The notes beneath the pieces were generated by a model that saw only the letters and a list, made by a program, of their open reading frames with translations, was not told the origin of the DNA and searched no databases. The position numbers and the translations under genes are program-made. A stretch of 64,000 nucleotides of DNA. It comes from Escherichia coli. GTDB taxonomy: Bacteria; Pseudomonadota; Gammaproteobacteria; Enterobacterales; Enterobacteriaceae. The DNA is taken from assembly GCF_016026235.1 (NCBI RefSeq), contig NZ_CP065613.1; one strand, given 5' to 3'. How positions within the stretch are numbered: the first letter of the stretch is position 1; each line of letters starts with the position of its first letter. This document shows, piece after piece, positions 9,683 through 13,990 of the stretch.

Positions 9683-9758
9683 TGGCTCCTCTGACTGGAC
9701 TCGAACCAGTGACATACGGATTAACAGTCCGCCGTTCTACCGACTGAACTACAGAGGA
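9683..9758 (-). tRNA. asnW: tRNA-Asn (GUU)
   Basis: Reverse complement is the 76-nt tRNA-Asn sequence TCCTCTGTAGTTCAGTCGGTAGAACGGCGGACTGTTAATCCGTATGTCACTGGTTCGAGTCCAGTCAGAGGAGCCA. Confidence 0.95.
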
Positions 9759-9858
9759 ATCGTGAGAACGAGGCGAATATTAGCGATGCCCACCCACAAT
9801 GTCAAAGCCTGTTTTTTAAATTTGAAATCGTTTGCTGAAATAATCTGCATTTTGTCGT

Positions 9859-11346
9859 TTATTCCGACACAGCTGGCTTTTTTTCACACTTTTGCGGTTC
9901 GGGTCGAGGGTATTTCCACAGCCAACGTCCAGTAACCATTCGCCAGTAAAACAGCACGGCCCGCACAGCCCAGTCGGCAAACATTCCCATCCAGACACCA
10001 ACCACACCCCAGCCAAGCATGATGCCCAGCACATAACCGACGACAACCCGGCAACCCCACATGCTCAACATAGAAACCCACATAGCGTAACGGGCGTCAC
10101 GAGCCCCCTTAAATCCAGCGGGTAGCACCCATGAAGCGGACCAAATAGGCATAAATAAAGCATTTAGCCAAATCAGAATCACAACGACATGTTTAACCTG
10201 TGGATCCTGGGTGTAAAACGATGCCATAACCCCGGCAAAGGGAGCCGTTAGCCAGGCGATGGCCGTTAATCCAAGAGTGGACAGCCAAAACACATGCCGC
10301 AACTGAATCTCTGCTTGCGCTATCTGCCCTACCCCCAACCTTCGGCCTGTAATGATCGTAGAAGCAGAACCGAGCGCACTTCCGGGTAAGTTGATAAGAG
10401 CCGCAATTGAAAACGCGATAAAATTTCCGGCAATAACACTGGTCCCCATTCCGGCAACGAACATTTGGGTTAATAACCGACCACTGGTAAATAACACTGA
10501 TTCGACACTCGCTGGAATACCAATCCCCATGACTTCCCAGATAATGCTAAAATTCAGCGGTTTAAAATAGCTCTTTAACGAAATCCTTAGCGCAGGATTA
10601 AAACCAATCGCCAGCACCCACAAAATTGCAACTGCGCCAATATAACGAGAAATGGTTAAACCCAACCCAGCCCCGACAAATCCCAGTCCCGGCCAGGAGA
10701 AAAGGCCGTAAATCAATATGCCGCTAATAATAATATTAAGAATATTCAGGCTACCGTTAATCAGTAGCGGTATTTTCGTATTCCCTGCACCACGAAGTGC
10801 CCCGCTACCAATTAGAGTGATGGCAGCTGCTGGATAACTGAGTACCGTCAGCTCCAGATAAGTCAACGCCAGTGCTTTAACTTCTGTCGTGGCATCACCC
10901 GCGACGAAATCAATAATTTGCTCGCCAAAATGATGAATAAGCGTTGCCAACAGTACGGCAAACAACGTCATGATCACCAATGACTGCCGCGTCGCCACCC
11001 TCGCTCGTCGTCGATCCCGCTTACCGAGACTAAATGCCACAACGACAGTAGTACCAAGATCGATAGCAGCAAAAAAAGCCATAATGACCATATTGAAGCT
11101 GTCCGCCAATCCCACGCCGGCCATCGCATCTTTTCCCAGCCAGCTGACCAGAAAAGTGCTCAGAACCCCCATCAACAGGACACAGGCATTCTCCATGAAG
11201 ATAGGAACAGCAAGCGGGGTTATCTCGCGCCAGAACAACACTTTGTAGCTCTTGCGTTTAGCGTGCCAGCGAGTGCCGTGAACAACCTGGCGTAAAGCAG
11301 AGGAGATATTCAAAGCCGACCTTAATTGCAGAAAGTGAAACCACAT
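9859..11346 (-). CDS. yeeO: MATE-family multidrug/flavin efflux transporter
   Basis: Polytopic membrane protein. Chosen start MWFHFLQLRS gives 495 aa; the ORF extends a further 51 codons upstream to 11499. Confidence 0.85.
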   Translation of the reverse strand: MWFHFLQLRSALNISSALRQVVHGTRWHAKRKSYKVLFWREITPLAVPIFMENACVLLMGVLSTFLVSWLGKDAMAGVGLADSFNMVIMAFFAAIDLGTTVVVAFSLGKRDRRRARVATRQSLVIMTLFAVLLATLIHHFGEQIIDFVAGDATTEVKALALTYLELTVLSYPAAAITLIGSGALRGAGNTKIPLLINGSLNILNIIISGILIYGLFSWPGLGFVGAGLGLTISRYIGAVAILWVLAIGFNPALRISLKSYFKPLNFSIIWEVMGIGIPASVESVLFTSGRLLTQMFVAGMGTSVIAGNFIAFSIAALINLPGSALGSASTIITGRRLGVGQIAQAEIQLRHVFWLSTLGLTAIAWLTAPFAGVMASFYTQDPQVKHVVVILIWLNALFMPIWSASWVLPAGFKGARDARYAMWVSMLSMWGCRVVVGYVLGIMLGWGVVGVWMGMFADWAVRAVLFYWRMVTGRWLWKYPRPEPQKCEKKPAVSE

Positions 11347-11506
11347 TTCAAATAATGAGGGAGAATCAGCAAAGCTGCAAAGATTTTCGCCATCAAATTG
11401 TCTGCAAATGCAACAAACTGTTGATAGAAACGGCAAACAGTTGGGAAAATTAAAAATCGGGTTTGACAAAAGATTTTTCGCCGTTAAGATGTGCCTCAAC
11501 AGCGAT

Positions 11507-11582
11507 TCCTCTGTAGTTCAGTCGGTAGAACGGCGGACTGTTAATCCGTATGTCACTGGTTCGAGTCCAGTCAGAGGAGCCA
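11507..11582 (+). tRNA. asnU: tRNA-Asn (GUU)
   Basis: Exact 76-nt tRNA-Asn sequence, identical to the asnW and asnV copies. Confidence 0.95.
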
Positions 11583-11590
11583 AATTTCTG

Positions 11591-11619
11591 AAAAGCCCGC
11601 TTTTATAGCGGGCTTTTTG
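11591..11619. terminator. Bidirectional terminator between asnU and cbl
   Basis: Hairpin aaaagcccgc ttttata gcgggctttt with T/A runs on both sides. Confidence 0.5.
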
Positions 11620-12570
11620 CTATATCTGATAATCAATTTCCTCTTCACTGTTTTCCATCACCTGCCGCTTGATATCCTCAACTGAAAGTCCTGCATTACA
11701 AAGTTCCAGAAAGCGCCAGACATAGTTACGCTGAAGTTGTCCTCGCTTCAGTCCCAACCAGACAGTATTAGCATCGAAAAGATGCCGCGTATCCAGGCGG
11801 ATTAAATTCTTTTCCTCTTGTTCACCGCTGGATTGTTCGGCAACTAATCCGATCCCAAGCCCAAGAGCAACATAGGTTTTAATGACATCAGAATCCTGCG
11901 CACTTAATATAATATCTGCCAGCAAACCTTTGCGGGCAAATGCGTCATCAATACGTGAGCGCCCCGTAATCCCCTGTCGGTAAGTGATTAACGGCCACTT
12001 CGCTATTGATTCCAGCGTCAATGGTGTAATTTGCGTCAAGGGATGATCGTGTGGAACAAGCAAACTATGGTGCCAACGAAACCACGGGAAGGCGACGAGC
12101 TGCGGGTCATTACTCAAACGCTCGCTGGCGATACCAATATCAGCTTCACCATTATGCAACAACGTCGCAATTTCCTGTGGCGTCCCCTGGATTAGCTCGA
12201 GCCGAACCTCCGGGAAAAGTTCGCGAAAAGCTTTAATGACCTCTGGCAAGCTATAACGTGCCTGAGTATGCGTCGTTGCAATAGTGAGAACGCCAGACGT
12301 ATCGTTGGTAAACAGGTCTGCAAGCCGACGAACATTACTGGCTTCATTGAGAATACGTTCTGCAATGACCAGTAATGCTTTGCCCGGTTCAGTCATGCCC
12401 AGCAGTCGCTTACCTCGTCGAACAAATATTTCGATGCCAAGTTCATCCTCCAGTTCCCGAATATGACGGCTGACGCCTGACTGTGAGGTAAAAAGCATAT
12501 TCGCAACCTCTGTCAGGTTGTAATCCTGACGTGCAGCTTCGCGGATTATCTTTAGTTGTTGGAAATTCAC
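11620..12570 (-). CDS. cbl: LysR-family regulator of sulfonate utilisation
   Basis: 316-aa LysR-type protein (N-terminal HTH, MNFQQLKIIREAARQDYNLTEVANMLFTSQSGVSRHIRELE); recognised as Cbl. Confidence 0.9.
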   Translation of the reverse strand: MNFQQLKIIREAARQDYNLTEVANMLFTSQSGVSRHIRELEDELGIEIFVRRGKRLLGMTEPGKALLVIAERILNEASNVRRLADLFTNDTSGVLTIATTHTQARYSLPEVIKAFRELFPEVRLELIQGTPQEIATLLHNGEADIGIASERLSNDPQLVAFPWFRWHHSLLVPHDHPLTQITPLTLESIAKWPLITYRQGITGRSRIDDAFARKGLLADIILSAQDSDVIKTYVALGLGIGLVAEQSSGEQEEKNLIRLDTRHLFDANTVWLGLKRGQLQRNYVWRFLELCNAGLSVEDIKRQVMENSEEEIDYQI

Positions 12571-12671
12571 GGTAAACTCCGGGCAGTTCAGATATCCCGT
12601 TATTGTTAAAGTCTAACGCCCAGCATAACAAATAATAAAAACCCGCATCTTATTCCATCCCGATATAACGC

Positions 12672-13589
12672 TTAGCTCACCAATTGCCACTGCCTTTTTT
12701 CCATCACTGGAGAACTAATCACTGACATTAACAACTCTTTCACTGCCTGTGCCTGTGGCGATAAGTTCGCTCTGGCGGGTAAATTTAATGACAAAGAGAG
12801 ACTCATGGAAGGCGTGGTAATGCGTGACATCCACCCATTTACTGCGCCACATAACGAACGCGCGGCCGATTCGGGTAATACTGCAACGCCCATGCCGCTG
12901 GCAATCGCTGCGGTAAGCGTAGCAATAGACTCAATTTCACCAATGACTTTTGCCGTGAGCCGCCGTAGGGAAAACGCCTCATCAACACGAAGTCTAACAG
13001 CGCTGTAATCACTGGGGAGAAAAAGGTTCATTTGTGCAATAGCATTAACATCAACGCTTTGCCCCGGGCAATCTTGAGTTCCTACCAGGAAAAGAGCTTC
13101 TTTCAGCAAAGCCTGACTGGATACACCAGCCACAGGGGAATGCTCATAAATCACCGCCATATCGAGTTGGTGATTTATCAGTTTTTCGTTAAGCACTGCA
13201 CCGCTATTTTCATGAAGATAGATAACGACCTCCGGGAATTCAGCGCGAACCGCCTGTAATAAGGGCATGGTGATGGATGACGCAGCGGTTCCTGGCGCAA
13301 AGCCAATCGAGACTTGCCCCGATAATGCCTGACCAACGTTATGCACCGCCAGTTGGGCCTGCTCACACTGACGTAAAATGGCCCGCGCATGGGTATAGAG
13401 AATTTTTCCGGCGTCTGTTGGCGTAACGCCCCGTTTTGTGCGAATCAAAAGTTGTTGATTTAACTCACCTTCGAGTGTGGCAACCTGCTGGCTGAGCGCT
13501 GGTTGTGCGATATGCAATACTTCAGCAGCCTGAGTCAGGCTACCAATATCTACAATTTTTACGAAGTATTTCAGGCGTCTGAAGTTCAT
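12672..13589 (-). CDS. nac: Nitrogen assimilation control protein (LysR family)
   Basis: 305-aa product from MNFRRLKYFVKIVDIGSLTQAAEVLHIAQPALSQQ; recognised as Nac. ORF has a 10-codon upstream extension. Confidence 0.9.
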   Translation of the reverse strand: MNFRRLKYFVKIVDIGSLTQAAEVLHIAQPALSQQVATLEGELNQQLLIRTKRGVTPTDAGKILYTHARAILRQCEQAQLAVHNVGQALSGQVSIGFAPGTAASSITMPLLQAVRAEFPEVVIYLHENSGAVLNEKLINHQLDMAVIYEHSPVAGVSSQALLKEALFLVGTQDCPGQSVDVNAIAQMNLFLPSDYSAVRLRVDEAFSLRRLTAKVIGEIESIATLTAAIASGMGVAVLPESAARSLCGAVNGWMSRITTPSMSLSLSLNLPARANLSPQAQAVKELLMSVISSPVMEKRQWQLVS

Positions 13590-13914
13590 GTTGCCTCCGG
13601 TTTTTGAGAATCGGCCCAAGTGCCGCCATTACTTACAACCAGATTGCAAGATGCTTGCCAGTTTTATTTTGGCGTTGATGTACAAGCTAACCAACTGTCA
13701 AATAAGAGATTATGATAGATTCGTCATTGGCTCTTTTCACCAGCAGTCGCGTTCCCCTGCCCTATAAAAGGAGGGTATGCACCACGATGGTTCATTACCA
13801 ATAAGATTGAAATCTCATCACTTTGTTGAAATTGACAGCAAACAAACAAAAAAATGCATTTCACCCTTTGACATCACCATGCACTGCCATTAATATGCGC
13901 CCCGTTCACACGAT

Positions 13915-13990
13915 TCCTCTGTAGTTCAGTCGGTAGAACGGCGGACTGTTAATCCGTATGTCACTGGTTCGAGTCCAGTCAGAGGAGCCA
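13915..13990 (+). tRNA. asnV: tRNA-Asn (GUU)
   Basis: Exact 76-nt tRNA-Asn sequence. Confidence 0.95.

Follow-up and report, generated by a model that had tools for sequence, protein, structure and literature searches.

The asnW-asnU-asnV array of an Escherichia coli chromosome: three identical, unoccupied tRNA-Asn genes and an apparent ancient scar beside asnW

In enterobacterial chromosomes, inverted copies of rRNA operons or insertion sequences (IS) support reciprocal exchange that flips the segment lying between them. In E. coli, the asn tRNA locus decides the seat of the islands for colibactin (pks) and yersiniabactin and of related elements. The asnW-asnU-asnV region, given as 4309 bp, can carry pks at asnW, asnU or asnV and is able to invert (Auvray 2021, PMC8209727), the inverted orientation having been found only in pks+ configuration 1A among 785 strains (Auvray et al., PMC8209727). 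An inversion of yeeO-tRNA-cbl-gltC has been described (Wami 2021, PMC8461471), and inversion between asnW and asnV occurs as a within-culture variant in UTI89 (Russell 2019, PMC6458436). The orientation of the array has been proposed to stabilise pks. For the Yersinia HPI and the Klebsiella elements ICEKp1 and ICEKp10, any one of several identical asn tRNA copies can be the insertion site (cited in PMC8209727).

The window analysed here is a stretch of 64,000 nucleotides, in which positions 9683-13990 span the 4.3-kb asnW-asnU-asnV region of PMC8209727. We consider it highly probable (about 0.93) that this is the E. coli chromosomal array in its majority, K-12-like orientation, with three empty attachment sites, tRNA genes that serve both as attB and as homology for inversion, and a fixed scar flanking asnW. 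The first-pass annotation read this array correctly; it is real, ordinary and already known, since asnW × asnV inversion and the use of asn sites by islands are both published (Auvray 2021, Wami 2021, Russell 2019). The tRNA genes and their neighbours are as follows.

8517..9233, plus strand: yeeN, the core gene next to the 3' end of asnW (ORF and O55:H7 locus annotation)
9683..9758, minus strand: asnW, tRNA-Asn(GUU), 76 nt with encoded CCA end (ARAGORN, Rfam), between yeeN and yeeO as in K-12
9859..11346, minus strand: yeeO, MATE exporter (ORF and annotation of the 99.9%-identical O55:H7 locus), flipped in the asnW × asnU inversion of other strains
11507..11582, plus strand: asnU, tRNA-Asn(GUU), identical to asnW, between yeeO and cbl
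11620..13589, minus strand: cbl and nac, LysR regulators flanked by asnU and asnV as direct repeats, flipped together with yeeO in the asnW × asnV inversion
13915..13990, plus strand: asnV, tRNA-Asn(GUU), identical to asnW and asnU, between nac and ldtA
14046..14981, minus strand: ldtA (erfK), the core gene that follows asnV directly (ORF and O55:H7 locus annotation)

ARAGORN identifies exactly three tRNA-Asn genes, with anticodon GTT at position 34, each scoring 72.6 bits against Rfam RF00005 (gathering score 29), and an Rfam scan of the interval from 8 to 20 kb gave no match other than these three. The gene order yeeN-asnW-yeeO-asnU-cbl-nac-asnV-ldtA, with tRNA orientations −, + and +, matches that of K-12 MG1655, which justifies the names asnW, asnU and asnV. 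In 4857 of 5426 genomes this arrangement extends across at least 80% of a 6.7-kb query; the locus is 99.9% identical to that of O55:H7/O157:H7, and the asnW junction aligns in full with K-12 (100% of its length, 96.2% identity). A fourth copy, asnT, is located just outside the window, upstream of yeeJ.

The three genes had been described as identical, and ARAGORN, alignment and string comparison all agree (76/76 nt). Their likeness ends a few bases beyond the genes, save for a −10/discriminator region common to all three and, in asnU and asnV, a similar terminator. The window contains three copies of the 22-nt tRNA 3' end, where shuffled sequence would be expected to give 0.00.

Each gene may form a self-contained unit made up of a strong sigma-70-type promoter, a 76-nt tRNA with its CCA and a hairpin terminator; consensus matches and predicted folds suggest these promoter and terminator functions in all three units, at the following sites.

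9777..9805, minus strand: putative asnW promoter, TTGACA, 17 nt, TAATAT and a G+C-rich discriminator (tcgcctc), 10/12 consensus matches
11463..11490, plus strand: putative asnU promoter, TTGACA, 16 nt, TAAGAT (consensus scan)
13868..13896, plus strand: putative asnV promoter, TTGACA, 17 nt, TAATAT (consensus scan)
9587..9621, minus strand: terminator-like asnW hairpin with U-tract, inside a fossil leader described below and some 60 nt beyond the tRNA
11590..11618, plus strand: predicted asnU terminator hairpin, with A-tract, G+C stem and U-tract, fold −19.5 kcal/mol, z −5.0
13997..14024, plus strand: predicted asnV terminator hairpin (terminator scan), by alignment a homologue of the asnU one, fold −18.0 kcal/mol, z −5.0

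The predicted asnU terminator is probably bidirectional because it adjoins the cbl stop codon, and the asnV hairpin is 22 nt from the ldtA stop codon. On the minus strand, 9580-9682 folds into two hairpins (−31.3 kcal/mol, z −4.6). The first-pass annotation had placed a terminator and a core gene directly after each tRNA. This holds for asnU and asnV, where the ends of cbl and ldtA follow at 37 nt and 55 nt respectively, but not for asnW, where yeeN is 449 nt away and about 226 nt of fossil sequence come first.

In the species, the 3' ends of the asn tRNA genes act as attB for the P4-type tyrosine integrases of HPI, pks and ICE-like elements. That they are island docking sites in E. coli, as had been noted, is borne out by published work (PMC8209727, PMC8461471) and by other complete genomes, in which pks, HPI and further integrase islands are located directly after asn tRNAs. 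The comparison with island-bearing genomes that had been suggested shows integrase-bearing islands in other strains at all three positions, with the integrase about 160-180 nt after the tRNA. At all three sites of the window a P4-type integrase starting at that distance is absent, and no accessory cargo is found between asnW, asnU or asnV and the next core gene. A tblastn search of the 64-kb window with six asn-island integrases gave no homologue (best E 0.46), and the suggested search for further copies of the tRNA 3' end (16-mer with up to 2 mismatches, 22-mer with up to 3) found them only within the three tRNA genes across the 64-kb window. The claim that none of the genes is occupied thus stands, and the empty, K-12-oriented array constitutes a reference state for occupied or inverted arrays as well as a potential recipient site.

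Two candidate islands were considered and rejected. An accessory block rich in IS elements, beyond cobU (17.4-52 kb), is separated from asnV by ldtA-cobTSU and has no tRNA 3'-end repeat; its recombinases are IS transposases (IS110, IS3, IS21), not tyrosine integrases. The 449-nt yeeN-asnW spacer looked long enough to hold a recent island remnant, but is core, being intact in 4974 of 5426 genomes including K-12 (96.2% identity), and contains only an ancient fossil, whose parts are listed below.

9457..9682, minus strand: fossil left end of an asn-tRNA island, the first ~226 nt after asnW, with leader and P4-type integrase fragments
about 9536-9682, minus strand: fossil tRNA-to-integrase leader
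about 9494-9530, minus strand: fossil integrase codons ~3-14
9457-9502, minus strand: fossil integrase codons ~35-50

The homology of this flank is seen in several comparisons. In blastn, the asnW flank matches the leader of a living island at 75% over 152 nt, and a local alignment of the leader scores 72, against 9.4 ± 1.2 in shuffles. The piece corresponding to the integrase start scores 19, against 7.8 ± 1.4, a value reached by 0 of 2000 shuffles, and a second integrase piece is 78.7% identical over 47 nt. A profile built from eight island left ends has the asnW flank as its sole match in the window.

The same likeness could have arisen in the reverse direction, if islands had captured chromosomal DNA flanking asnW by imprecise excision, in which case the flank would be native and no fossil. 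Imprecise excision with capture of flanking DNA is known for integrative elements, and the leader alone, at about 150 nt, has no coding content to set the direction. The asnW flank, however, runs on into integrase codons ~3-14 and ~35-50, a remnant of about 25 codons with a stop codon and deletions. Moreover, asn tRNAs of Lelliottia, Klebsiella spallanzanii and Intestinirhabdus are followed by a full-length integrase beginning at nt 166, and those of Franconibacter, Enterobacillus and Erwinia by truncated versions. Capture of the flank is very improbable because such integrases, full-length and truncated, point to repeated decay of an element in place and not to capture of an E. coli flank.

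By sequence comparison, the 3' flank of asnW is a decayed attL/integrase-start fossil, a species-wide scar that we call fixed in Escherichia, and not an island. In an exact-pattern scan (29-mer) of species-representative genomes the E. coli representative is absent from the matches, and a SNP within the 29-mer is the likely reason. An integrase or a 3'-end repeat downstream of one of the copies had been named as what would speak against empty sites; the 64-kb window yielded no integrase homologue and no such repeat, and the integrase-start fossil touches on the point as a scar. No earlier description of this fossil was found in the literature searched, the incomplete coverage of which leaves its novelty unproven.

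The orientation of the array was compared across 5,426 complete E. coli genomes by a junction test (megablast, 80% coverage rule), in which u and d denote upstream and downstream flanks and W, U, V and T denote asnW, asnU, asnV and asnT. Counts are of genomes, not of independent events, and IS insertions near a tRNA, such as IS1 in L004, can break or mimic junctions. The native junctions are intact in 4974 (uW-dW), 5176 (uU-dU) and 4664 (uV-dV) of the 5426 genomes, and separation of a site from its tRNA is most frequent at the ldtA-proximal one, affecting about 13% of complete genomes. The window itself is not inverted, with all three native junctions (40/40 flank matches, by definition) paired as in K-12 and O55:H7.

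asnW on the minus strand forms inverted repeats with asnU and asnV on the plus strand, 76/76 identical. The suggestion that asnW and asnU could mediate inversion of yeeO is matched in nature, with uU-dW in 34 of 5426 genomes and the reciprocal uW-dU in 32; we found no earlier description of this yeeO-only inversion, although coverage of the literature searched is incomplete and novelty is unproven. The asnW × asnV inversion is commoner (265 genomes versus 34), its uV-dW junction being present in CFT073, 536 and Nissle among others; uW-dV is present in 1 genome. Ten loci opened as examples show flanks that change precisely at the tRNA boundaries, the 76-nt gene itself being unaltered. In O157:H16 Santai, yeeO is cleanly inverted and asnW, asnU and asnV are all free of islands, L002 has the order yeeN-tRNA-nac-cbl-tRNA-yeeO-tRNA-int-clbS, and the yeeN-tRNA-nac junction also occurs beside non-pks islands (KL53, JE86-ST05). 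In SE15, the order is inverted with ldtA directly after a tRNA, and an asnW-yeeO' piece is duplicated; as there and in 2016C-3878, some recombinant junctions are complex multi-island loci and not simple inversions.

Two further rearrangements were considered and set aside. Deletion of cbl-nac through the direct repeats asnU and asnV would give uU-dV, which is present in 35 genomes, but the one that was opened, 2016C-3878, is a multi-island rearrangement with cbl-nac relocated. Inversion of yeeJ-yeeN by asnT × asnW (uT-dW) appears in 1 genome only (ET5).

Identical repeats are classic sites of misassembly, so that the recombinant junctions might be suspected of being artefacts at a repeated tRNA gene. 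This is exceedingly unlikely: the repeat is only 76 bp, below ordinary short-read length, the assemblies are complete and come from many laboratories, the reciprocal counts agree (34 and 32), the duplication/control junction uV-dU is found in 0 of 5426 genomes, and the asnW/asnV inversion has been reported independently (PMC8209727, PMC6458436, PMC8461471).

Mechanistically, the tRNA bodies would act as 76 bp of portable homology, where reciprocal exchange would re-pair upstream and downstream flanks and so invert either yeeO (asnW × asnU) or yeeO-asnU-cbl-nac (asnW × asnV). Exchange may be catalysed by RecA or by an integrase, and both routes would yield the same products since the crossover lies inside identical sequence, so that sequence alone cannot separate them. 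A length of 76 bp is above the minimum for RecA-mediated exchange in E. coli. It is possible, though we would not favour it, that the inversions in other strains are the work of integrases encoded by islands, which would recombine asn attachment sites in inverted orientation (attL or attB × attB, at the tRNA 3' end), and not of RecA acting across 76 bp. In every asnW × asnV-type example opened, the ldtA-proximal tRNA is followed immediately by a P4-type integrase, classic pks+ strains are among the 265 genomes, Auvray et al. propose that inversion accompanied pks insertion (PMC8209727), and the UTI89 culture in which inversion was detected has pks at asnV (PMC8209727, PMC6458436). Against this, besides the sufficient length of the repeat, stand the clean inversion of Santai with its three island-free sites and the inverted order of SE15 with ldtA directly after the tRNA. 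Should integrases be responsible, the window, which has none at its asn sites, would be comparatively stable.

More speculatively, the asn array could be a small natural shuffling cassette, in which integrases and RecA recombine inverted sites, re-pair promoters with flanks and trap islands such as pks, and in which the 3' sequence and predicted terminator of asnW go back, by exaptation, to an integrase leader whose island predated the diversification of Escherichia; we regard this as tentative. What the census adds is modest detail, namely the ldtA-proximal loss (~13%), both inversions and the asnW scar, and it leaves current understanding unchanged.

Compared with known systems, the window is closest to K-12, whose asnT/asnW/asnU/asnV have the same genes, order, orientation and flanks; divergence from K-12 is at strain level only, the window being closest to the O55:H7/O157:H7 lineage and asnT lying beyond its edge. 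In pks+ B2 strains, where pks and HPI are located at asn tRNAs, the same three genes provide attB and also delimit the inversions (PMC8209727, PMC8461471), but those strains have the inverted asnV-asnU-asnW orientation, whereas the window has neither island nor inversion. The yeeN-tRNA-nac junction, restricted to pks+ configuration 1A in Auvray et al., is found in our census beside non-pks islands as well. The Yersinia HPI and the Klebsiella ICEKp1 and ICEKp10 share with the E. coli sites a P4-type integrase, an attB located at the 3' end of the asn tRNA and a choice among identical copies, but belong to other host species and were compared through integrase homologues after asn tRNAs of other genera. 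Relative to inversions between rRNA operons or IS copies, the asn repeat is only 76 bp, the inverted segments are 1.7 and 4.2 kb, and the repeat is also an integrase target, which makes a site-specific route possible.

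The array comprises three tRNA-Asn genes, the only ones that ARAGORN finds in the 64-kb window, each scoring 72.6 bits with the Rfam tRNA model and preceded by a predicted promoter that matches the consensus:

9683-9758, minus strand: asnW, tRNA-Asn (anticodon GTT); predicted promoter TTGACA, 17 nt, TAATAT
11507-11582, plus strand: asnU, tRNA-Asn (anticodon GTT); predicted promoter TTGACA, 16 nt, TAAGAT
13915-13990, plus strand: asnV, tRNA-Asn (anticodon GTT); predicted promoter TTGACA, 17 nt, TAATAT

Direct comparison shows that asnW, asnU and asnV are identical over all 76 nt, and the first-pass annotation, which had reported this identity at these positions, was right. 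The 22-nt tRNA 3' end occurs three times in the window (0.00 expected). Annotation places the genes in the order yeeJ, a gene for a GT9 glycosyltransferase, shiA, amn, yeeN, tRNA (–), yeeO (–), tRNA (+), cbl (–), nac (–), tRNA (+), ldtA (–), cobT, cobS and cobU; the order is identical in K-12 MG1655, and the names asnW, asnU and asnV therefore apply. A fourth copy, asnT, lies upstream of yeeJ, beyond the window, a position seen in L003 and L004, two example loci from other E. coli genomes. The 6.7 kb surrounding the tRNA genes shares 99.9% identity with O55:H7/O157:H7 chromosomes, and essentially all complete E. coli genomes have it. The yeeO frame (9859-11499, minus strand) is unbroken: with a TTG further upstream as its start, the ORF has 546 residues, against 495 in the annotated gene. 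In O55:H7 RM12579, 99.9% identical at this locus, the annotation gives yeeO as a pseudogene that contains a stop.

None of the three genes in the window is occupied by an island, as the first-pass annotation had proposed. Searching the window by tblastn with six P4-type integrases from asn-tRNA islands of other strains found none (best E 0.46), no further copy of the tRNA 3' end occurs in the window with up to 3 mismatches, cbl lies 37 nt beyond asnU and ldtA 55 nt beyond asnV, and the 449-nt spacer between yeeN and asnW is core sequence, covered 100% by K-12 at 96.2% identity. Beyond cobU, 17420-52500 is an IS-rich accessory mosaic with IS110, IS3 and IS21 transposases, also encoding a DeoR/PfkB kinase, a GATase1-like protein, a YdcZ exporter and a phosphotriesterase-family protein; 17.4-42 kb is covered to at least 80% in only 1 of 5,426 genomes (NCTC9008), and the mosaic sits where L003 and L009 have a cobalamin riboswitch, pocR and the pdu operon.

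A G+C-rich stretch follows all three –10 hexamers. Within 7 nt of asnU and asnV stand predicted hairpins with A-tract, stem and U-tract (–19.5 and –18.0 kcal/mol) that align as homologues and are probably bidirectional, because they adjoin the convergent cbl and ldtA stop codons. Homology between the two units covers the terminators (11583-11618; 13991-14024), the –10/discriminator regions (11463-11506; 13868-13914) and the tRNA, which suggests duplication of one entire promoter-tRNA-terminator module. asnW is the exception: a hairpin lacking a U-tract comes first, followed by a U-tract hairpin at 9587-9621. The description of each tRNA as followed directly by a terminator and a core gene holds for asnU and asnV but not for asnW, where yeeN is 449 nt away and a relic intervenes:

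9457-9682 (~226 nt), minus strand: decayed island leader (tRNA to integrase) and fragments of the first ~50 codons of the integrase (alignments, profile)

The tRNA-to-integrase leader of a living island in strain 2016C-3878 (L011) matches the first ~150 nt 3' of asnW at 75%, and past a ~14-nt deletion, to which the region of the start codon has been lost, the alignment goes on into the first integrase codons (window PTDITIRKVKNSVP*, island MALTDTAIRKTKPSDKPFK). The local alignment scores 72 against 9.4 ± 1.2 for shuffles, and the integrase-start piece by itself 19 against 7.8 ± 1.4, with 0 of 2000 shuffles as high. A second piece (9457-9502) resembles codons ~35-50 of the integrase of the asnT island of strain E2 (78.7% over 47 nt), and a nucleotide profile from eight island left ends has its sole window match at 9638-9681 (E 0.017). 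In an exact-pattern scan of species-representative genomes, 13 Enterobacterales shared this start of tRNA plus leader; an integrase begins at nt 166 after the leader in Lelliottia, Klebsiella spallanzanii, Intestinirhabdus and a Citrobacter (full length or reaching the end of the available sequence), truncated integrase starts follow it in Franconibacter, Enterobacillus and Erwinia oleae, and a divergent Escherichia sp. has the relic and yeeN after it (86.8% over 460 nt). K-12 PGAP annotation has no feature over the region, and in L003 the modern island is inserted between asnW and the relic. The leader and codon matches, with their spread across genera, show that the asnW flank is an old island scar fixed across Escherichia. 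The asnW U-tract hairpin is situated within this scar, to which asnW has lost a terminator equivalent to those of asnU and asnV. Hence, although no intact integrase or 3'-end repeat lies downstream of any copy in the window, a relic of integrase codons does follow asnW. In E2 (L012, 6501-8005) and other strains, an integrase with a leader of the same family as the relic stands after asnT, so the family behind the scar is still in circulation in E. coli.

That asn tRNAs serve as island integration sites was borne out by the loci opened in other strains: pks after the ldtA-proximal tRNA with HPI at asnT (L002), an 11-kb integrase-bearing island separating yeeN from asnW (L003), a Klebsiella-like metal-uptake island at asnU (L004), other integrase islands (L005, L006), HPI 3' of the middle tRNA (L007), and two integrases at one locus with a T6SS cluster (L011). 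In L011 (953-48001), two facing asn tRNAs surround an Rhs/toxin-antitoxin island of 15 kb whose two ends each carry an integrase; a large Rhs/T6SS cluster comes after cbl, and no adjoining tRNA is annotated.

Junctions were counted in 5,426 complete E. coli genomes with 1076-nt probes (500 nt upstream, tRNA, 500 nt downstream), a genome being scored if one place spanned at least 80% of the probe.

Genomes (of 5,426) carrying each pairing of upstream (u) and downstream (d) flanks of asnW (W), asnU (U) and asnV (V)
uW-dW (native): 4974
uW-dU: 32
uW-dV: 1
uU-dW: 34
uU-dU (native): 5176
uU-dV: 35
uV-dW: 265
uV-dU: 0
uV-dV (native): 4664

The zero for uV-dU serves as an internal control, as chimeric probes are therefore not matched by default; an extra probe, uT-dW, matched 1 genome. 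As rough occupancy, summed per downstream flank and blurred by IS insertions and the coverage rule, the flank lies away from every asn tRNA in ~3% (yeeN side), ~4% (cbl side) and ~13% (ldtA side) of genomes.

The first-pass annotation had proposed that asnW and asnU could invert yeeO, and exactly that event is present in O157:H16 Santai (uU-dW, uW-dU, uV-dV), a clean yeeO-only flip with no island at the three sites. The commoner pair is asnW/asnV (uV-dW, 265 genomes, versus 34 for uU-dW), in which the entire yeeO-asnU-cbl-nac block is inverted, as in CFT073, 536, Nissle 1917, ABU 83972, NU14 and about 260 more. KL53 carries a double product (uV-dW, uW-dU, uU-island). SE15, where an asnW-yeeO' piece is duplicated, is an inverted partial duplication, not a simple flip; its locus (L010, 3124-8576) has inverted nac-cbl-tRNA-yeeO order with the third tRNA directly before ldtA, and a second, truncated yeeO fragment remains joined to asnW beside yeeN.

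In all opened loci the flank-typing script finds the tRNA unaltered and the change of flanks placed precisely at its edges; the inverted repeats are identical, the junctions reciprocal, and the exchange falls inside the repeat. Its catalyst would be RecA-dependent recombination or an integrase, routes that yield the same product and that sequence cannot tell apart. Homologous recombination is favoured as the main route (probability roughly 0.6): 76 bp is enough in principle for RecA-dependent exchange, and the inversion in Santai, which has no island at the three sites, fits this route. An integrase acting between inverted attachment sites is rather unlikely as the explanation, though the asnW/asnV flip is associated with an integrase beside the tRNA. 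GC skew on the plus strand is negative in 7 of 8 bins (1-64000), in agreement with the K-12 map position, at which the minus strand is the leading one; on this reading asnW would be transcribed in the direction of replication and asnU and asnV against it, orientations that the large inversion would reverse.

The first-pass annotation therefore stands in observation and interpretation, except for the asnW flank, which carries the relic, and for asnW/asnV being the commoner inverting pair. The junction census, the yeeO-only inversion and the asnW relic are small, checkable additions. A literature search turned up no description of the yeeO-only flip, which is a minor variant of the asnW/asnV inversion process. 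The asnW/asnV inversion is already in the published literature: Russell et al. described it as a within-culture variant of UTI89 that is possibly dynamic (PMC6458436). The array itself is textbook E. coli architecture in its default state, and is already known.
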